DNA from: Dictyostelium discoideum
Taxonomy: Eukaryota
Length of the DNA: 64,000 nt
Direction of reading: 5' to 3'
Assembly: GCA_000004695.1 (NCBI GenBank)
Contig: CM000155.2
Coordinates: 2,848,001-2,912,000 of the forward strand
The position numbers were made by a program, and so were the translations under genes. Positions 1 to 61,386 of this stretch are shown here, in pieces; within the stretch, counting starts at the first letter, position 1, and every line of letters starts with the position of its first letter. The notes beneath the pieces are model-generated. The model did not search any database, was not told where the DNA came from, and worked only from the letters and a program-made list of their open reading frames with translations.

Positions 1-4673
<4,673 letters not shown>

Positions 4674-16639: not shown

Positions 16640-17464
16640 TTAAGATGATACAAATTGTTTTAAAAATGGTAACCAATTTAAAGGTATTGGTGAAGACCAA
16701 ATACCTAAACTTTTAATATTATTATTAATAATTAATTGAAATCTTTGAGTTAATTCTTCAGTTGAGAAAGGTTGATTATTTTCATCAACAGTCATAACAC
16801 CAACAGCCAATTTATTCAATGGAATTGATTGAATTGCAAATTGTAAAGCACTTTGAAAACCTTGAAAAGTTCCAGCATAGGTTGACATTGTATAAATTTT
16901 ATCAACTGAAGTTTGAGCCAACAATGATAAATTCCAAAATGGTGTCCAAGTTGCTGCACAAACCGTTAGAGTTTTATTATATTGATGTAATTGTTTAGCG
17001 AATGAATCAATGAAATTTGCATATCCAATTGAGTCTCGTTCATCACCACCAACTGGTTCAATATCAATATTCCATCCATCGAATCCTTCATCGATTGCAT
17101 GTTGAATAGCAGAGTCAATGAACGGTTGTGGATTATTAATTAATTGACGTGCATATTCTATCACTTCAGGTCTACCAAATGGACAACATGTTGATACCAT
17201 TGGTAAGGTTTTTAAACCCGCTGTTTGTAATGGATATTGAACATCTGTAAAATTATTTACAATCAATGTTGAATTTGCTCCCAAATTAAATCTTTCAAAT
17301 GCTACTGAATCTAAAATTTGAGTTAATGATAAAATTTGTTCTAAATCACTATTTATAGTTTCATTAGTTCTTTCAAGTCCCATCCACGTTAAAACACTTT
17401 GTTCTCTACATTTAACAATAACAACAATTAAATTTATTAAAAATAAAATAATTATTGATTTCAT
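16640..17464 (-). CDS. Secreted GH18-family protein, di-N-acetylchitobiase (CTBS)-like
   Basis: 274 aa with N-terminal signal peptide (MKSIIILFLINLIVVIVKC). The motif GFDGWNIDIEP matches the GH18 DxxDxDxE region, with the second Asp replaced by Asn while the catalytic Glu is retained. It resembles human chitobiase YMDGINIDIEQE, and MSTYAG / KLAVGVM resemble the MSYDE / KLVMGV blocks. Confidence 0.5.
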   Translation of the reverse strand: MKSIIILFLINLIVVIVKCREQSVLTWMGLERTNETINSDLEQILSLTQILDSVAFERFNLGANSTLIVNNFTDVQYPLQTAGLKTLPMVSTCCPFGRPEVIEYARQLINNPQPFIDSAIQHAIDEGFDGWNIDIEPVGGDERDSIGYANFIDSFAKQLHQYNKTLTVCAATWTPFWNLSLLAQTSVDKIYTMSTYAGTFQGFQSALQFAIQSIPLNKLAVGVMTVDENNQPFSTEELTQRFQLIINNNIKSLGIWSSPIPLNWLPFLKQFVSS

Positions 17465-19555: not shown

Positions 19556-19826
19556 TTTTTAATTTTAAAAAAAAATTTAGGGTTAGTGATTTTTTTTTTT
19601 TCACTCAGTTAGTGTATACGTTACGTAGTCATTTTGAGCGTTGGCCGCGTAGTTAAATTAAATAATAAAATTCACTAAGCAGGGAAGGGAAATTTTCCTA
19701 CAACAATTACAATATAACCCACCGAAAGTTGTCAATGTAGGTTACTTTTAAATAATATCTATTTATTTATTTTTATAAAATTTTACTGGGTTTCAGAGGG
19801 TAATGTTTTTTTTATTTATTTTATTT

Positions 19827-19929
<103 letters not shown>

Positions 19930-19972
19930 CAAATTTATTTGTATTAATCAAAATTTAACAAAAAGATTATTA

Positions 19973-20285
19973 TTGTGGGACAGAACACGATTTAGAAATT
20001 TCCGAAAATCAGGTTTAATTTCAAATGAAATTTATAAATTTGAAGAAAATGAAAAAATATTAGCAGACAAAGGTTATGTTGGAGAGAGTTTATTTTTTTT
20101 ATGCCCTGAAAAAGGTGACAGAGAAAGCTTTTTAAAATATCAAAAAGAATTAAGGTATAATTTTACCATATCGTCAAATGATAGAAAACGTTTTTAGCAG
20201 AATTAAATCTTGTAATATATTAGTTAATAGTTTTCGCGGTGATATTGATATATTATCAGAATATATCAAAATTATTTTTTAATAT
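19973..20285 (+). mobile_element. Remnant of a PIF/Harbinger-type DDE transposase (DDE_Tnp_4-like), frameshifted
   Basis: ORF 19973..20197 encodes ...NEKILADKGYVGESLFFLCP...; ILADKGY matches the conserved D-x-G-Y block of the third DDE region of Harbinger/PIF transposases. The downstream segment in another frame (SRIKSCNILVNSFRGDIDILSEYIKII) resembles the C-terminal conserved block. There is no intact ORF. Flanked by a less AT-rich stretch at 19600-19800 and by tandem AT-rich repeats at 20340-20560. Confidence 0.4.
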
Positions 20286-47850: not shown

Positions 47851-48155
47851 ATTGTTTTTTTTTTTTTTTTTTCAAAAAATTAAAAAAAAAATAAATTAAA
47901 AACAACTATGATATACTGTTATTGTTATTATTATTTTTATATTATTATTTTTATTGGAAATAAAAAAAAAAAAAAAAAAGGTAAAAAAATTTATATTAAT
48001 ATCTATATATTATTGGATTATTATAAACAAAAATAAAAAAAATAAAAAAATAAAAATAAATAAAAAAAAAAAAAAAAAAAGCGGATCGCCTCACCAGTGT
48101 TTTGTTTTTGAAAGTTTCGTTAAAGGCAAGTGAAAAATAAAATTAAAAATAAAAA

Positions 48156-48203
<48 letters not shown>

Positions 48204-48455
48204 AAAATAAACTTTTTTTTGAAACACAAAAAAATAAAAAAAACTAAACAATTAATTAATTACATTTGAATATCTTTGAAACTTTTTTTTTTTTATATAA
48301 TATTTTTTTTTTTTTTTTTTTTTTGAACAACTTTGTTTGTTTAAGCAAAATGAAAAAATAAAAATAAAAAAAAATAAAAAACAACAAAAAAAAAAATAAA
48401 ATTAAAAAAAATAATAAAAAATGGGTTTATTTTTATAGTTAAATTCTGCGAATCT

Positions 48456-48494
<39 letters not shown>

Positions 48495-49243
48495 GGAAAA
48501 GCCCTAAATGAAAAAAATAATGGTGGCAAACTTTATCTATATATACTTTTAATTTTAAAGGAATTTTTGAATAAAAATAGAAATTTTTTTATAAATAACT
48601 TTAAATATGTAAATAAAAAAAAAAATTTTTAAAAAAAAACCAAAAAAAATTTTCAAAAAAAAAAAAAAAACCTAATACTGGGGTCAGCATTAAAAATAAT
48701 TTATGTGGGGGGGATAATATAAAACGTAATATTTAATTAAAATTATAAATAAACTCCGCCCTTGTTTGCGTTATCAAACATATGAGTGTTGACATCAGTT
48801 GTAATCCCCTTTTAAAAAAAAAAAAAAAAAAATCAAAAAAAATCAAAAAAAAAACCAAAAAAAAAAAAAAAAATCAACTTAATTTTATATTTTTTATTTT
48901 TATTTTTATTTTTTTTTAAAAATAGACCAATTTTTTTTTTTTTTTTTTTTTTTTTCAATTAATGAATCCAATAATTGTAATATCACATAACTTATGTCAT
49001 TGTGATGTGTTTAATTTATTAATTTTTTTTTTTTTTTCAAACCACAAATTAGGTGAAACACCTCTTGTGTCATTGTTAGGTGTTAATTTTATATCTTGGT
49101 TCATAGATTTTTTTTTTTCTTTTTTTAATCTTCTTGTAACATGCTAAAAAAAAAAAAAAACAAAACAAAAAAAAAAAAAATTATCAATAACTTTCTATTT
49201 TTAGATTAAAAATTAAACCCTTTTTTTATTGTTTTTTTTTTTT

Positions 49244-50392
49244 TTAATCTTTTTCTAAAATTATTGAATAATAACTAAATAGATTTTCAATATTTTTAAT
49301 TGGTGAAATTTTAATTTGATTAATAAATTTTGAAATAAATAATTGATATAATGAATCTTTAGTAGTTTGATCACCATTTATAAAATTTTTAAGTGATGTT
49401 TCACAAGCGGCATTCATATATGAGAATAAAATTTCGGATTTTTCTTGATCTGATAAAATCATACTATCATGACTATCAGAGAACTTTTGAAGATGTAATT
49501 TTATTGAAATTAACTTTAAACCATAATCATTTTCAACCATTTTAATTGAATCTAAAATCTCATCTTTTCTATAAAAATTAATTGGAATAATCATTTTGTC
49601 AACTTCATTCATTGAAATTAAATTTTCATTTGCCATTTGTTTCCAAACTGTTTTTGAAAGTTTAAATAATTCATAAAGTACATTATTTTCATTGGAGGTG
49701 GTGGTGGTAGTGGTAGTGGTGGTGGATGAGGTGGGTGTCTCATTTTCATTTTCATTTTCATTTTCATTTTCATTTTCATTCATTACAGTTAACATGAAAA
49801 TACCACCTTTTTTTAATTCTTTAGCACGAAGTGAAAAGTTTTTATATAAAATGTCAATGCAATATTGTTTGTATTCTTTTGATCTGTGTTTACAGTAAAC
49901 ACCAATCGAGTCAGGGTCGTAGTGGAATGATACGTGATAGTTACTCCAATGGGATGCGGAGAAGGAGAAGACGTAATCTATGGTGTTTGAGGGCACTAGT
50001 TGATTGTAGAATGAGTTTCCAATACCATAGAAATAGATTTGATTTGATAATTTAATATAACTATTTTTATTATCAGAGATTTCTTTAAAAAGTAATGAGA
50101 AATTATTTTCAGGTAAATCTTCATGGTATACTTCAAAACACTGATTAGGAAATTGTTTTAATACAGTTGAAATTATTAAATTAATTGGTATAATTGAGTT
50201 TCTACCATGACTAGATCCGATATCTAATATTCTAATTATATTTGGATTTAATTGATTTTGATTTTTTTCATCATGATCTCCAATTTTAAATTTAATATTT
50301 TCAATCATTATATCACATGATTTAATTACCATATCCATTGTATTATTAATTGTTTGGCTTTGAACTTTTGAAAAATCATTATAACTTGATTG

Positions 50393-50395
<3 letters not shown>
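49244..50395 (-). CDS. SAM-dependent carboxyl methyltransferase, SABATH (Methyltransf_7) family-like
   Basis: 383-aa single ORF. ILDIGSSHGRNS matches the SAM-binding D-L-G-C-S-x-G-x-N-T block of plant SAMT/JMT-type enzymes, and overall length and layout fit. Contains an internal (NE)n/Thr tract. Confidence 0.6.
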
Positions 50396-50428
<33 letters not shown>

Positions 50429-50469
50429 CTAAAAGGGAATTTAAAATAAAAAAAATGAAAATAGTAACC

Positions 50470-50500
<31 letters not shown>

Positions 50501-50546
50501 AAAATTTTTTTCCAGGAATTTTAAAATTCCAATTTTAAATTTTCCC

Positions 50547-50577
<31 letters not shown>

Positions 50578-50852
50578 GTTTTTTTTTTTTTATTTTTTAA
50601 ATAAAAAAAAAAAAAAAATTAAAAAAAAAAATTTTAAAAAAAAAAAAAAAAAAATTTTGGGGCGACCAAATTGGGGGGTAAAAGGGGGGGGGAGGTTTTT
50701 TTTTTTAAATTTTTTAAAATCCCTAGGGGAAAAGGGGGTTTTTAATTTTAAAATTTTTTTTAAATTTTTTTTTTTTTTTTAAGGATAAGGGGGGGGAAAA
50801 CTTTGGGAATTGGGTTGGATTTTTTTTTTTTTTTTTTTTAAACCCATTTGGG

Positions 50853-50883
<31 letters not shown>

Positions 50884-51454
50884 CAAATAAAAAAATATTG
50901 TCATATTTAAAAGATTATCAAATTTGACTTGTAATGAAATGGTTTTGGTTAAAAAAAAATGGGTTTTTTTTTTTTTTTTCTTTTTTTTTCACCTGATTTT
51001 TTACTTTTTTTTTTTAGTAATTATTTTATTTGATTTATAAGAAATCAAAATGGATATAGTATAGTAGATTCAAATAGATTAAACAAAATTAATATCCGTT
51101 AACTAGTAATTATATAAACAATAACCTACTTTAAATATAAATAAATTAATTACAAATTATTAAAATTATACAAGCTTTATTAATTTTTTTTTTATTATAA
51201 TAATTAAATTTTTTTTTATATTTTTTTATTTTTTATTTTTAATATTAAAACGAATTATTGATATTAGTTAATAAATTCGTTATAATATAAATTAATGATT
51301 ATTTTTATTTTTTTTAAATATCAATTTTCTTTTGACTATTTTATTGATATTTTTTTTTTTTAATAATAATAAAGATGATAAAAATAAATAAAAAAATTAT
51401 TAAATTAAAAAAATATTAATAAAATTTTATTAAATATTTTTATTAAATAATAAT

Positions 51455-56129: not shown

Positions 56130-56229
56130 NNNNNNNNNNNNNNNNNNNNNNNNNNNNNNNNNNNNNNNNNNNNNNNNNNNNNNNNNNNNNNNNNNNNNNN
56201 NNNNNNNNNNNNNNNNNNNNNNNNNNNNN
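56130..56229. other. Assembly gap (100 N)
   Basis: Run of n immediately upstream of the degenerate second copy of the duplicated segment. Confidence 0.95.
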
Positions 56230-56236
56230 TTTGTTT

Positions 56237-56950
56237 TTATATATTATGTATTCTAATTACGGACTCATCAACATACTCTTTTGTCACTAACAGATAAAGT
56301 TTCGTTTGATTATCTTNTGGTGAAAACATCAGCATCAGATTGTAATTGATCAGCTCTTTTATAACCCGTTTTGTTTTTGAGTGATTGAGATGTGATTCCA
56401 CCATTATTGGAAGTTGTGACAGCTTCATGTGTTGATCAAGCATGGGTGGTAGAGAGCTCGATAGCTTTTTCAACTAGGTCATCTGATGATTTTCATTTGG
56501 TTATTTCAATATCCCTGTGCAATTAATTTTTACTTGTCTCCGCCTCTCTAAATTCAACATTTACTTTGTACTTCAAATCATTTTTATCAATAGTAACTTC
56601 GTTAAATAATACACCAAATTCATCACTTTGATTGAATTCAACATCTTTAAATTCCAAAAAAGCGATATCTTCGGGTGGATACTTTTTATTAGATTTATTG
56701 TTTTTACTGTAGATCATTTTTTGGAACGAAAACTTTAAAAAAATAAAAAAATAAAAAAAAAATACTTTTTAATTTTTTTAATTTTTTTTTTTATATTTTT
56801 TTTTTTTATATTTTTTTTTTTTAAATTTTTTTTTTTAATTTTTTTTTATTTTATTTTTTAAAGTTTCGAACAATTATATATAAAAAAAAAAAAAGATATC
56901 CCTTCGGTTAATTATAGTAACAATACAGACAACAAGAATAATTATAAAAT
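56237..56950 (-). repeat. Second, degenerate copy of the 25447-26160 segment (ORF1 intact, ORF2 with several stops, identical 3' tail)
   Basis: 56523..56717 encodes the identical 64-aa ORF1. 56237..56500 is a diverged, stop-containing version of ORF2. 56717..56950 repeats the AT-rich tail ending gatatcccttcggttaattatagtaacaatacagacaacaagaataattataaaat. Confidence 0.7.
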
Positions 56951-57129
56951 AAAAAAAAAAAAAAAAAAATCTTTTTTTATCTTTTTATTTTTATTTCTTA
57001 TTTATTTTTATTTTTTTATTTTTTATTTTTTTTTTAATTATTTTAATCCCGTGAGTTTTTTTTTATTATTATTTTTAATTCTTTTATATTTGAGATGATT
57101 ATTATTAATTAAATGACTTTGAGTTTTTT

Positions 57130-57312
57130 TTTTTATTTTTCTATGCCCAAAATTACCATATTAATTTCGGCAGCCATATTAATTTCAGCCTAAAATAGTT
57201 GGTCTGTGCATGCCAAAATTAATATGGCTGCTGAAATTAATATGGTAATTCTAGCAGACATAAGTCCCATGCCAAAATTATCATATTAATTTCAGCAGCC
57301 ATATTAATTTTG
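57130..57312. mobile_element. Foldback-type repeat, second locus of the 45-bp unit (direct/inverted arrangement), thug-like
   Basis: cccaaaattaccatattaatttcggcagccatattaatttcagcc ... ccaaaattaatatggctgctgaaattaatatggtaatt (inverted) ... ccaaaattatcatattaatttcagcagccatattaattttggcatggg. Same unit as at 24951-25108. Confidence 0.45.
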
Positions 57313-57540
57313 GCATGGGACAAATATGAATTAAAAAGAAAACAAACTTTAGAACTAAAAGAATTAAAAAGTGAATGTGGGGAAGGCCCGGTATTATCTA
57401 AAGAAGAATCAAAAGAATTGGATGATTTAGAAAGAAAATATAAACGTGTTGGAAATTAAAAAATAAAAAAAGGTAAAAAAAAAGTAGATAAAAATAAAGA
57501 TATTAAATTATAATGTGTTTATCCACGCTCGAGGAAGGAT

Positions 57541-59243
57541 TTATAATCCAACTCTTTCTAATCTATCATATTCATTTTGTAATAAACCAATTTCTTTTTT
57601 TATTTCATATTGTCTTTCTTTTGTTGTCACTGGTTTGAAATTAATTATTTCATCAGTATCTGACAACCAATTTTTAGATTTGAATAATTCATATAAATCA
57701 GAATGTGTCATCATTAAACGCAATACACCACCCGAACCATATGGTTCAATTTTAATTCCAAAAGTTTTCAATGTGGTTTTTAATTCAGCTTCTTTAATTG
57801 TATGTTTATTATCTCTGTTCATTTCCTGATGATATTTAAATTCATTTACAAAATCAGTGAATTTAATTTTGTTCAAATCTTTACCTTGTAAAATGTAATT
57901 TTTTTTAATATATTTCATATTTGCCGGTAATTGATCACTTTTCATCCCAATAAATGTTTCAGATTGTGGTATAACATCTTCATTAAATTTAGATTTATCA
58001 CTATTTTTCAATTTCCAATAAAATGATTCAGCTACATTTGGATCGTCCATATATTTACCTAACTTTTCAAAATAATCTTTATTTCCTTTGAATTCAGATG
58101 ATAAATCAAATATAGCAAAACGTCTTTATACTGATGCGCCTATCTTTATATTATCAGAATTACAAGTGAAAATCATATTCATATAATTAGGTACATTTAC
58201 TTTATCATTTTGATTTCTTTTACGAATGGTAATTAATAGTTCAGTAATAATATATTTAATACCCTCACCAACATTATTCCAATCCTTTACAATTGGTTCA
58301 TCAACCACCATTAATAGCTTTTTCTCAATAATATCATTCCATCCACCAAAAAGTCACAATTATTTACTGATGCGGATATATTATAACCTAAAATCTTTGT
58401 AATAAAGAAATTTGTAAAAATACCTTTTCCAATACCACCCATAAATAATCTCCACATTAATGCAGTCCTAAGTTTACGTCCTTGACTACATGCTAACCAA
58501 TTAATTAGATATGAATATTGTTCTTCATTAAGAGAACAAATTGCAACCTTCAAATGGTTCATAATCACATCAACACCCTCCAGTGTCGTGGTGCTGACCC
58601 CGTTTGGTTCGCTATCATAGAACCAACCTGCAAATTCATTAACACATAAACTACAATCATCTCGTTTAAAAATTCTATCTTTATCTGGAACCCAAGTTGG
58701 TGTACAATGATTTGGTTCATACTCCATAAACCATTGGTAAACATCAAAATTTGGATAACCATCAATTTTGATTATTCTTCTTCTAAAATATGTTTTCTCT
58801 GCATCTGAATACGATAAATCTTTTATTTGTTTATCACCTGGCACCCAAAATCTAAATATTGGTGAACCACCTATTTTAATAAAGTATGTTGATATATACT
58901 TTTTTATATTCTCAACTTCGTCAAATGTTTTTGCAGTTACACACATAATATTTAATGTGTTTACATCAAATGCTTGTTTTGACGAACAAAATAAATGTGG
59001 GTATGATTGATTAAATAATGACTTGTTCACTTCTACTGGTTCTTGATTTAGCGGGCAAGTTAACTTGGCTACTAAATCTTCTTGCACTAAATCTTCTTCT
59101 TCTAAATCTTTTTGCTCCACTAAATCGTTTTCCAATTTATCAACAAGCTCTCTCCAACTCTCATCTGAATCTCTTCTATTTTTATCTGTATGTCCAAGTT
59201 CTTTTGCTCTTTCAATAAGTTGTTGTTTATTAGGTTTTACCAT
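57541..59243 (-). pseudogene. D5-type primase-helicase (superfamily 3 helicase) pseudogene: one frameshift and one in-frame stop
   Basis: Piece 1, 58311..59243: ...EEQYSYLINWLACSQGRKLRTALMWRLFMGGIGKGIFTNFFITKILGYNISASVNNCDFL matches the D5_N / Walker A neighbourhood (W..G......f...G.G.NGKS.F..l...lG.Y), with a degenerate P-loop. Piece 2, 58126..58311, in another frame: MVVDEP (Walker B hhhhDE) ...IKYIITELLITIRKRNQNDKVNVPNYMNMIFTCNSDNIKIGASV matches the SF3 K.LTGGD.I..R..y.....F.P.f.l.F.tN..P motif C. A TAA follows in frame, then RRFAIFDLSSEF (the conserved ..RR...i.F block) continuing as piece 3, 57541..58050. The order and spacing of the motifs are canonical for NCLDV/virophage/polinton-like-virus D5 helicases. 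Confidence 0.6.
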
Positions 59244-59259
59244 TTTATATAACTATATA

Positions 59260-59703
59260 TTATGTAAAGTTTAAAATAAAAAATAGAGAAAAAAATAGAA
59301 AAAAATATCTTTGTTGGTTTTTTATAACATTAATTTCAAGTCTTTCATAGTGTTTTCTATCAATAAAAACATTTTCAACTTTATATTCTGGTATCTCATC
59401 ATTGAACGCCAATAAAATATAATCATAATTATATAAATTTATTTCACTACCATCTGTCATATTATAAATTGATAGAGATTGATGTTTTTTGATTTTATCT
59501 AAATATATTTTTAATGATACTATAATTCTTACATCTCCGCTAATTATTGTATAATATTGATATGGTCTATTTTGATAATTCATTTTTATATATCGGTATA
59601 TTATGTAAAGTTTAATGTAAATGTGATGTAAAAAGTTGTGTAAAAAATTTTGATTTTTTTTTTCAAAATCTTTTGATTTTTTATTATTTTTATATTTTTT
59701 CAA
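59260..59703 (-). CDS. Hypothetical 147-aa ORF adjacent to the D5-like pseudogene
   Basis: ORF with moderate complexity (…YQNRPYQYYTIISGDVRIIVSLKIYLDKIKKHQSLSIYNMTDGSEINLYNYDYILLAFNDEIPEYKVENVFIDRKHYERLEINVIKNQQRYF). No homology recognised. Confidence 0.3.
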   Translation of the reverse strand: MKKYKNNKKSKDFEKKNQNFLHNFLHHIYIKLYIIYRYIKMNYQNRPYQYYTIISGDVRIIVSLKIYLDKIKKHQSLSIYNMTDGSEINLYNYDYILLAFNDEIPEYKVENVFIDRKHYERLEINVIKNQQRYFFLFFSLFFILNFT

Positions 59704-59781
59704 AATTTAAACTACATATACGGTAGTTTTTTTTGATTGTATATAAAATGTCAGAAAAAAGTATAACAGATTTAGTTACAA

Positions 59782-60213
59782 TTGCAAAAGAAACAAAAGT
59801 ATTATCTGTTTGTTCCAGTATCTCTAGCTGCTTTTGTAAACCAAAATATCAAAAAAGAAAGAAAATTAAAAAAATTCGAAAGTAGAGACTTTTTTGCCGA
59901 TATCAAGGATCAATTAGATGGACTGGAGTGCTCCTTATTTAACACCATCAACCTTTTTTTTAGTCCAATTGAAGGTTTTGACCAACTTTCCGACTTATTA
60001 GTAAAAGCCATGTTCAAAGATGAAATTGCTCCATTTGGAAATGCAACCAATGTTATTAAAGCTTTTTGTAAAAGAGTCTCTAACTATGGAGAATTAATTC
60101 ATAATTTTATAAGATGTTATGACAAAGATGATTCATATAATATTTTAGAAAATTATGAAGCTTTAAAAATATCCCTAAACAAACTTTTGTTGTTTGTTGA
60201 AACACAAATTTAA
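59782..60213 (+). CDS. Hypothetical 143-aa ORF, divergent from 59260..59703, abutting the GC-rich palindrome
   Basis: MQKKQKYYLFVPVSLAAFVNQNIKKERKLKKFESRDFFADIKDQLDGLECSLFNTINLFFSPIEGFDQLSDLLVKAMFKDEIAPFGNATNVIKAFCKRVSNYGELIHNFIRCYDKDDSYNILENYEALKISLNKLLLFVETQI. Normal complexity, no homology recognised. Confidence 0.3.
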   Translation: MQKKQKYYLFVPVSLAAFVNQNIKKERKLKKFESRDFFADIKDQLDGLECSLFNTINLFFSPIEGFDQLSDLLVKAMFKDEIAPFGNATNVIKAFCKRVSNYGELIHNFIRCYDKDDSYNILENYEALKISLNKLLLFVETQI

Positions 60214-60239
60214 TAACAATATAAAAATAAAAACAATCA

Positions 60240-60800
60240 CCTCCGCAAATTCGCAGTTTTTTGCGGGTTTTAATTTTATCACAACAACAATAATTATTTA
60301 TTTATTTTTTCGCGTGTAGAAAAGTAGAGAGTGTAGAGTGATTTCTGACGAACTAGTACGGATTTCACAAATACACAAAAATAGTGCACGTCATATAAAA
60401 TCAATAGAGAACCCCTATAACTCCTCTTACGTTATGCACGATATTGTGTTTGTGTAATTCTGTGCGCGTGTATTAAAATCAAGAGGGATTGTTAGTACGT
60501 TATCATTATACATGACGTACACAGTTTGCACTTTTTTTTATGTTTTCGTACTTTTTTTTACTACTCACTCTACAACTCTATTTTTCTACATATATATAAA
60601 AAATTAAAAATAATATTAATATTACATGAATATATGTATAGAGTAATATATAGATAATAAAAATATGGAATATAGTTTAGAGTGATTTTAGGTTATAGGA
60701 GCATAGCCGAAGGCTAATGCGATAGGGAAGCAGCAAAGCGTTCCCTCACACCTTCCCTCACACCTTACCATTTTATGACCTTCCAGAATATAGTAATTTT
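60240..60800. repeat. GC-enriched region containing nested inverted repeats (about 300 bp imperfect palindrome) and a small perfect hairpin
   Basis: Hairpin CCGCAAA-ttcgcagttt-TTTGCGG at 60244-60267. TAGAGAGTGTAGAGTGAT (about 60322) pairs with ACTCACTCTACAACTCTA (about 60562). GTGCACGTCATATAA (about 60387) pairs with TTATACATGACGTACAC (about 60513). A direct repeat CCTTCCCTCACACCTT x2 lies at 60745-60775. Composition is clearly less AT-rich than the surroundings. Confidence 0.5.
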
Positions 60801-61386
60801 CAAGGTACTATTGATAAAAAAAAAAAAGCTAAATTATTTTAAATTTGTTTTCTTTTCACCAATGATAAATCTAATGATGGATTCACAATCATTTCGATAT
60901 AAAACAAATAAATTATTTATTGTTTTTTTTTGTAAGGTTGTTAAATTATAATTTTTCTTTTTCTTCTTATTATTATGTTTATTATTTAATAAATTATTAA
61001 TACTAATATCTAAAAATGTTATTTATTTATTAATTAATTAATTAAGTACATACTATTGGATGTTTTATACATGCCATAAACCAACCTATCAAGAATATGT
61101 TGAAAGTTTACAATCAATAATTTAAAATTGTTATAATATATATTAATAATTAGGGAAATTGAAGAGAATAAAATTTACATCCTAATCCTCCATTTCCCCA
61201 AAAATTTTCAAAAATAAATAAATAATTTAAAATATTAATACAAATTGTATGTGTATATTAAATAATAATAGATTAAAAAAAAAAAAAAAAAAAAAAAAAT
61301 TAAATTAAATTAAATTAGAATCAAAATTTCCTTCAAACATAATTCATGCTCTTCTATTCCTGTAAAAAAAAAAATTAAAATTAAAA

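Follow-up and report, generated by a model that had tools for sequence, protein, structure and literature searches.

The stretch of DNA studied here, which we call the window, comprises 64,000 nucleotides (nt) of chromosome 6 of Dictyostelium discoideum AX4 (assembly GCA_000004695.1, contig CM000155.2, positions 2,848,001 to 2,912,000). On its reverse strand it carries a disrupted helicase gene that the AX4 annotation has split in two, DDB_G0293464 and DDB_G0293454, and DDB_G0293464 is also the only close protein match of the gene. We consider it very probable that this gene is the dead SF3 helicase (DUF5906 family) of a Polinton/Maverick-like virus, that it arrived in a foreign insert of about 10.5 kb and that it was then broken by two small mutations. 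We regard it as a genuine and fairly young pseudogene in an endogenous viral relic, and as ordinary in kind; decaying endogenous viral genes are common in protists.

Exactly two interruptions were found in the gene, one missing base and one in-frame TAA, so that one uninterrupted frame through all the motifs could be read in neither of the two assemblies that we compared: Walker A and Walker B lie in different frames and the TAA precedes the RR of the arginine finger. Frame 0 runs from position 59243 through Walker A to "...ISASVNNCDFLVDGMILLRKSY*" and ends at 58311; homologues align with it as far as "...NNCDF", after which 12 out-of-frame residues lead to its TAA. The -1 frame holds TAA and TGA codons up to about position 58354 (a TGA at about 58356-58354), then opens as "LFGGWNDIIEKKLLMVVDEP...", continues to "...FTCNSDNIKIGASV" and the TAA at 58128-58126, and resumes as "RRFAIFDLSSEFKGNKDYFEKLGKYMDDPNVAESFYW..." for 194 codons as far as its natural stop. 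By homology, the change of frame falls within 58355-58346, where the run of five T at 58352-58348 is the only homopolymer, and the sequence points to this run as the most likely site of a 1-nt deletion. Restoring a sixth T in the run yields ...NNCDFFGGWNDIIEKKLLMVVDEP and a helicase ORF (open reading frame) of 567 codons plus stop codon, in which the internal TAA is the sole defect left. This TAA lies nine codons past the Asn of motif C and is reachable by a single-base change from GAA or CAA. The initial annotation of the locus had placed an in-frame stop exactly before the arginine-finger RR with the same frame on both sides, which agrees with the TAA being followed directly by AGA CGT; its location of that stop inside motif C was loose. 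It had also put Walker A and Walker B in different frames around 58311, and here the frames were right and the site was not, as the frame change lies about 40 nt upstream, just outside the interval that it gave, and 58311 is merely where the first ORF ends.

A 10-mer, CGCATCAGTA, is present on the reverse strand at 58374-58365 and at 58138-58129, in each case no more than 25 nt upstream of a lesion, and encodes ...ASV both times. Templated mutation or micro-conversion through this 10-mer was considered and rejected, since its codon-shuffle P of about 0.018 is post hoc and the bases that follow the two copies differ (TAAATA vs TATAAA). The pair beside the lesions is probably a coincidence.

The three pieces of the gene are collinear on single intact homologues, and on the family member P0007 they match residues 6-207, 211-283 and 288-444. 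A Pfam scan of the repaired protein returned DUF5906 alone (PF19263; 50.7 bits vs a cutoff of 27.6, E=3.3e-13, residues 269-367), and this match covers the repaired frameshift junction; because of it and of the collinear match of the three pieces, the reconstruction is not a product of chance. The scan gave no match to primase, D5_N or Pox_D5 families at E<=0.1, the PHROG matches are to the helicase part of "DNA primase" families, and in the domain of about 170 amino acids (aa) that precedes the helicase part similarity to primases is undetectable. We read conservation from an alignment with 19 intact relatives, in which the invariant columns G270, G272, K273, E316, N362, R374 and R375 are all matched in order (GGIGKG, MVVDE, FTCNS, RR). 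NrS-1 and other members of the family likewise have a Gly following the Walker A Lys. The frameshift takes out a segment (GGWNDIIEKKLLMVVDE) whose counterpart in the relatives is a conserved "G-xFNxxLxGKxLLxLEE" block that includes an invariant Asn, and the alignment with the best eukaryotic match, from the dictyostelid Synstelium polycarpum, runs straight over the frameshift. Beyond the TAA the protein retains the invariant Y391 and E406 and the near-invariant F408, P426, K447, L492, L517 and D531. At highly conserved columns the window protein has 9 mismatches in 60, a value inside the span of 1-13 (of 59-62) for the aligned homologues, and the gene therefore appears, from this alignment, to bear no sign of long neutral drift beyond its two lesions.

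Both lesions could be errors of sequencing or assembly in the 2005 Sanger reference, the gene being intact in the organism, and it is in keeping with this that N gaps and low-quality contig ends lie near and that one lesion falls in a homopolymer. The initial annotation had proposed an independent assembly as a check, and we used the gap-free assembly GCA_054883475.1 (contig JBTAPE010000034.1), which was found through the members of a protein cluster; exact-sequence look-ups of the three ORFs and of the annotated AX4 protein P0001 in the contig index were unmatched. A 33-aa "cluster member", P0164, sits on a bacterial contig and was discarded as irrelevant. Window positions 57300-60300 are identical in this assembly at 3001 of 3001 bases, lesions included, and its ORF list shows the same three helicase pieces. 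Over 22 kb of the helicase locus, all differences from the window are length changes in long homopolymers or clusters of mismatches beside N gaps of the reference, and none lies within the helicase gene. The assembly has a different local structure and was apparently built de novo, and its gene model ACTFIT_008969 likewise splices out both lesions. On this evidence we give an error in the reference next to no chance.

The GH18 protein encoded beside the insert is identical in both assemblies and the differences between them over those 22 kb are limited to homopolymers and the surroundings of gaps, so that GCA_054883475.1 belongs to the same laboratory lineage as the window. It is probably strain AX2-214 from the Nanopore and Illumina project of Holland et al. 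2025 (PMC12745789). When two loci were compared, the assemblies differed in homopolymers, beside gaps and in two intergenic stretches, and nowhere else. In these stretches, at window positions 48100-48900 and 50300-50900, up to 24 positions per 100 nt of AT-rich DNA differ from the corresponding locus (L007) while the genes are identical, and they represent either low-quality reference or hypervariable repeats.

Public gene models bridge the lesions with introns. The AX4 model P0001 (443 aa) joins ...ISAS to LLMVVDEP over a 50-nt "intron" and ends at the TAA, and the ACTFIT_008969 model P0162 (615 aa), from GCA_054883475.1, uses the same 50-nt "intron" and another of 69 nt. If the two interruptions were genuine short spliceosomal introns, the 615-aa spliced protein would be made, and the two candidates do begin with GT, end with AG and restore the frame; the 50-nt candidate is moreover used in two annotations of different assemblies. 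They fail, however, in length, G+C content and conserved coding content. Four real introns from host genes of the window measure 97-134 nt and have 2-13% G+C, whereas the candidates, at 50 and 69 nt, have 28% and 23% G+C against 28% in the gene body, with no pyrimidine tract. Splicing of the 50-nt candidate would remove a conserved segment including the invariant Asn, and that of the 69-nt candidate would remove V*RRFAIFDLSSEFKGNKDYFEK, the invariant RR of the arginine finger included; the sequence to be excised also encodes RRFAIFDLSSEFKGNKDYFE, which resembles RRYAILDVSNIFKNNKDYFE in Heterostelium album. A spliced product without its arginine finger would not be a helicase either. Because of their atypical length and composition and the invariant residues that they encode, we judge both candidates to be gene-predictor artefacts, and we hold real splicing to be very improbable. 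DDB_G0293464, DDB_G0293454 and ACTFIT_008969 should accordingly be annotated as one pseudogene, as the artefact introns feed spurious proteins into UniProt and RefSeq.

The frame could also be recovered in translation, by a -1 frameshift on C UUU UUG together with readthrough of the UAA. The shift needed is indeed -1 and falls on a U-rich run, and the remaining ORF is conspicuously intact. C UUU UUG, however, departs from the canonical X XXY YYZ heptamer, the 97 nt that come downstream fold no better than shuffled sequences (z=-1.0; 34 of 200 shuffles as good), two separate recoding events would be required, and none of the 19 aligned homologues (0/19) needed repair at either site. We find recoding scarcely credible. 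The two independent inactivating lesions described in the initial annotation are thus upheld: they cut conserved motifs, they are present in the gap-free assembly and the introns that would bypass them are not credible.

The insert itself was dated by comparing orthologous loci. We used the adjacent host GH18 gene (16640-17464) as the anchor and retrieved the loci, with 10-kb flanks, from two wild D. discoideum assemblies (GCA_054859385.1 and GCA_054859355.1) and from D. citrinum (GCA_054859145.1). In all three the insert is absent from the interval between abcG and GH18, and tblastn with the helicase and with a second gene of the insert, the candidate capsid gene described below, gave no match in these loci. 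Identity over the aligned flanks of the insert is 84-93% in the wild D. discoideum strains and 78-90% in D. citrinum, and the distance from abcG to GH18 is about 1.1 kb in D. citrinum vs 15 kb in the laboratory lineage. Since the insert is missing at the orthologous site in the wild strains and in D. citrinum, it entered after the laboratory (NC4-derived) lineage had split from the other sequenced isolates of D. discoideum. The light damage to its genes agrees with this. This absence, and the broken state of the neighboring gene, bear out the proposal that decay followed insertion; the intact orthologue that was to be sought in other strains and species is missing from these same loci, as is the gene as a whole. 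Being a presence/absence polymorphism, the insert lends itself to tracing among wild isolates.

The inactivation appears to be recent as well. Of the possible point changes in the helicase, 6.2% would create a stop and one such change has occurred, and as the rest of the frame is open and conserved we estimate, from the sequence, that the gene was inactivated recently relative to the neutral substitution rate. The initial annotation expected an intact progenitor to exist, and none more than 36% identical was found in the protein databases (5.8 billion sequence clusters; representatives of about 15 billion proteins); identity to the nearest relatives is 27-36%. A HMMER scan of 1.84 billion representatives, for which the query was the annotated protein P0001 and not the repaired protein, returned 213 remote relatives, the best of them 36% identical, and among the matches listed most are 23-39% identical, about 450-620 aa long and helicase-only. 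No close relatives of the helicase were found in IMG/VR or the JGI metagenomes, no orthologue was found in the other annotated Dictyostelium proteomes in the database, and a profile search of a word-indexed protein database gave almost nothing beyond P0001.

We propose the following course of events. About 10.5 kb of foreign DNA was inserted between abcG and GH18 in the lineage of the laboratory strains, as the comparison of loci shows. The loss of one T between Walker A and Walker B would then have cut the ATP-binding loop off from the catalytic Asp-Glu, and a point mutation would have produced the TAA one codon ahead of the arginine finger. From the established mechanism of SF3 helicases, either lesion alone would be expected to block assembly of an active hexameric ATPase, and no full-length helicase protein could be made. 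The insert contains another gene with damage of this kind: a TAA and a frame change at 22307-22286 divide the candidate capsid gene into ORFs of 114 and 331 aa.

The 310-aa N-terminal product or the C-terminal 169-aa ORF might instead have been kept for a new function other than that of a helicase. Both ORFs are long for DNA with 72% A+T, each has an ATG, the first has a promoter-like motif and conserved residues are retained. Recent inactivation explains the open frames equally well, given the share of changes that make stops and the one that is seen; the insert is dispensable, as the two other D. discoideum assemblies examined lack it in the orthologous interval; and the other annotated dictyostelid proteomes in the database hold no orthologue. 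Retention for a new function is in our opinion improbable, although less so than splicing. We would rate somewhat higher, and still as an outside chance, a stronger version of the viral origin, in which a virus invaded the laboratory lineage after the split and inactivation is so recent that wild D. discoideum populations still have intact, perhaps active, copies or free virions in circulation. To our knowledge D. discoideum has no described DNA virus, and if such a virus does circulate it would be the first tractable DNA virus or endogenous-virus system for this model amoeba. Our literature searches with the locus tags, the UniProt IDs and mir-7131 found no paper.

The assignment to a Polinton/Maverick-like virus draws on the relatives of the helicase and on its neighbors. 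In the gap-free assembly the helicase lies about 4.2 kb from two other genes of foreign appearance on the same strand, which we call gene X and the candidate capsid gene. Outside D. discoideum the candidate capsid gene has a single homologue, H. album PPL_12645, which is 41% identical and sits beside a gene for a C48 protease. The H. album locus (L008) contains a gene X, the candidate capsid homologue, a gene with a Ulp1/C48 protease domain, a 691-aa gene, a chromodomain integrase and an intact 557-aa DUF5906 helicase, which is collinear with the repaired window protein over 488 residues at 27% identity. The H. album integrase gene has a Pfam Chromo match and matches the rve/chromo integrase genes of two metagenomic contigs (L001 and L003), while the 691-aa gene has no Pfam match and can be called pPolB-like (protein-primed DNA polymerase B) only by its resemblance to a gene of L001 that has a weak DNA_pol_B_2 match. 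A block of helicase, rve/chromo integrase and pPolB is also present on two metagenomic contigs (17-20 kb) in which close family members are encoded. The gene set of H. album and of the metagenomic contigs is, as far as gene content can tell, Polinton/Maverick- or Mavirus-like. Gene X is about 52% identical over 79 residues (tblastx) to part of a 275-aa ORF that precedes the candidate capsid homologue in H. album, and could represent the truncated form of a minor capsid gene.

Other dictyostelids are reported to contain polintons (Yutin, Raoult and Koonin 2013, PMC3671162; Yutin et al. 2015, PMC4642659). The helicases of Polinton/Maverick elements and of Mavirus-type virophages (the helicase-only "S3H") belong to the same DUF5906 family as the window helicase, whereas the D. 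discoideum copy is 27-36% identical to its nearest relatives and broken twice, and its insert is without detected pPolB-like, integrase or protease genes or recognizable terminal repeats. Endogenous viral elements and virophage or PLV (Polinton-like virus) integrations in protists, as far as the account of Bellas et al. 2023 cited in PMC11702301 goes, are likewise lineage-specific, polymorphic and decaying nuclear integrations; by the same account they come in multiple near-intact copies, in contrast to the single, short and degraded copy found here. Lightly decayed and lineage-specific, the insert would be direct evidence that a Polinton-like virus reached the D. discoideum nucleus recently, on the timescale of strain divergence. 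It requires no change of concepts, and its interest is raised slightly by the model host, the polymorphism and the corrections to annotation and scaffold.

Several points weigh against this interpretation. A tblastx comparison of the locus in GCA_054883475.1 (L006) with the H. album element matched the helicase, gene X and the candidate capsid gene only, with no pPolB-like, integrase or protease gene detected in the insert; the ORFs of the window gave no match to the pPolB or integrase of contigs L001 and L003; and no terminal inverted repeats or target-site duplications of the insert were found. The term Polinton-like is for these reasons taken over from the relatives and not from this copy. 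The candidate capsid gene has no Pfam match, an AlphaFold model built from a 4-sequence alignment was unusable (pLDDT 31), and it is synteny that makes the gene a capsid candidate; its AX4 (DDB_G0293426) and ACTFIT_008973 models use different splices. The codon usage of the helicase is close to that of the host (correlation of relative synonymous codon usage r=0.94; 18% G+C at third codon positions), in a window where G+C varies between 13 and 34% across 1-kb windows around a mean of about 23%. Usage so close to that of the host is not what one expects of DNA that arrived recently, except where its donor was itself adapted to a dictyostelid host rich in A+T, and such a donor is what it suggests. 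The second assembly, being of the same laboratory lineage, excludes error and leaves room for an allele specific to that lineage; it is silent on other natural strains. Lastly, splicing or low-level recoding is formally possible. With these points taken into account, we still favor the dead Polinton/Maverick-like helicase.

At the level of the fold, the claim of the initial annotation that the helicase is D5-like was correct for the model of a relative, and it did not extend to a primase domain or to a D5_N or Pox_D5 match. We tested the fold on P0007 and not on the broken window protein; the AlphaFold model of P0007, built from 85 sequences, has a pLDDT of 92.8, and Foldseek gave a probability of 1.0 for its match to the C-terminal region of NrS-1, the SaPI5 primase-helicase, monkeypox virus (MPXV) E5, residues 323-785 of vaccinia D5 and the PrimPol of African swine fever virus (ASFV). 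The model thus indicates that a D5-like fold of collar and SF3 core is present in the family. A single-sequence search of PDB sequences with the helicase gave no match, while a family profile found the NrS-1 phage SF3 helicase at E=3e-22 and gave a weak match to papillomavirus E1. The C-terminal helicase of the NrS-1 primase-polymerase (PDB 6K9C, 6K9E, 6LRB), which is this best sequence match, is also the best structural match of the P0007 model (E=1.6e-16, TM 0.5-0.66), and it shares with the family a GTGKG variant of Walker A, an FN..L..K motif and DRR; it differs in that its helicase is fused to a primase-polymerase. Poxvirus D5, MPXV E5 and ASFV C962R have in common with the P0007 model a fold of collar, SF3 AAA+ core and C-terminal region (E of about 1e-8), and their Walker A, Walker B, motif C Asn and RR finger are also found in the window helicase. 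The D5-type proteins of nucleocytoplasmic large DNA viruses differ in having an N-terminal archaeo-eukaryotic primase domain, none being detected in the window helicase, and the D5 chains in PDB gave no match at the sequence level, the nearest solved relative being the phage helicase.

Table 1. Positions of the disrupted helicase gene, its motifs and lesions, and associated features in the window
Feature	Position	Strand	Remarks
Disrupted SF3/D5-fold helicase gene, whole	57541..59243	-	ATG 59243 to TAA 57543-57541
Piece 1, 310-aa ORF	58311..59243	-	N-terminal extension, collar-like domain, Walker A
Walker A, GGIGKG	58439-58422	-	Frame 0
Run of five T	58348..58352	-	Between Walker A and Walker B; likeliest site of 1-nt deletion
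Piece 2, -1 frame	58126..58353	-	GGWND, Walker B, motif C; closed by in-frame TAA
Conserved G-x-(F/W)-N segment, GGWND	58347-58333	-	Piece 2
Walker B, MVVDEP	58311-58294	-	Piece 2
Motif C, FTCNS	58170-58156	-	Piece 2
In-frame TAA	58126..58128	-	Directly before RR; homologue column mostly D/E
Piece 3, 194 codons	57541..58125	-	RR, VAESFYW motif, C-terminal domain; fully open, conserved
Arginine finger RR, AGA CGT	58125-58120	-	Piece 3
Piece 3 from its ATG	58050 onward	-	Separately annotated as DDB_G0293454
50-nt "intron", GTAAAT...AAAAAG	58318..58367	-	In both public models; bridges frameshift; 28% G+C; judged artefact
69-nt "intron", GTATAA...GAAAAG	58063..58131	-	ACTFIT_008969 only; skips TAA; 23% G+C; judged artefact
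Promoter-like 19-nt motif	59256..59274	-	Just upstream of helicase ATG
Upstream 108-aa ORF, MNYQNRPYQ...	59260..59584	-	Fused by both models as exon 1 via GTTATA...TAG "intron"
Left part of lineage-specific DNA	56230..60948	.	Contains helicase; boundaries approximate
Right part of lineage-specific DNA	19699..25424	.	Candidate capsid gene and gene X; boundaries approximate
Candidate capsid gene, 445 codons	21291..22651	-	Homologue of H. album PPL_12645
Gene X, 134-aa ORF	22755..23159	-	Matches part of H. album 275-aa ORF

Upstream of the helicase lies a 108-aa ORF that the public models fuse to it. The 19-nt motif just upstream of the helicase ATG, TTAAACTTTACATAATATA, recurs identically at 59597-59615 on the reverse strand, upstream of the 108-aa ORF; these are the only two exact copies in the 64 kb, and they stand 15-35 nt upstream of the ATG of the two tandem genes. 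Because a promoter-like motif and an ATG are present for each of the two ORFs, the 108-aa ORF probably represents a gene of its own within the insert, and the fusion (59260-59703) would be another annotation artefact. The motif TTAAACTTTACATAATATA looks like a shared and possibly viral promoter. A degenerate copy at 59707-59723 on the forward strand precedes a divergent ORF (MSEKSITD..., from 59733; 59733-60213, forward strand) that appears to shift frame into a 143-aa ORF at 59782-60213, with no Pfam match, and that is possibly the third gene of the insert to be damaged.

Other features of the insert were noted in passing. A precursor hairpin of the Rfam family mir-7131 is found at 57219-57307 on both strands (96 bits vs a gathering threshold of 74), about 235 nt past the helicase stop and inside the insert, with more copies of the repeat "ccatattaatttcagcagccatattaatt" flanking it. 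Positions 60330-60760, at the left end of the insert, form a G+C-richer, non-coding-looking block containing for example ggtgtgagggaaggtgtgagggaacgctttgctgcttccc, with no Rfam family at threshold. Near the right end, a 74-aa ORF at 19973-20197 on the forward strand has a weak match to DDE_Tnp_4 (PIF/Harbinger-type transposase; E=9e-4), below the Pfam threshold. The window contains no tRNA genes, and the context is therefore not that of a tRNA-targeted retroelement. Inverted repeats of about 250 bp flank the insert (L006 8197-8448 and 19743-20054) and are the only long ones near its ends; because they are also present in strains without the insert, we take them to be host repeats. In the wild strains (L010 and L011) the interval between these repeats is inverted with respect to the laboratory lineage and carries extra duplications of abcG fragments.

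The comparison of assemblies also bears on the chromosome 6 reference. The lineage-specific DNA of about 10.5 kb corresponds to positions 8636-19173 of L006, that is, to window positions 60948-56230 followed by 25424-19699, and in GCA_054883475.1 position 56230 is joined directly to about 25424. In the window the two parts are separated by about 30 kb of host genes (26268-56129) that are bounded by N runs at 26168-26267 and 56130-56229. In the gap-free assembly this block does not lie between the helicase and the candidate capsid gene, and one of its genes is found about 47 kb away on the same contig. The reference contigs on either side overlap by 747 bp, with 56230-56976 matching 25425-26167 at 95% identity and nearly all mismatches falling in the low-quality end at 56233-56517. 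The comparison thus exposes a probable mis-ordered contig of 30 kb in the AX4 chromosome 6 reference, the alternative being a real rearrangement in AX4.

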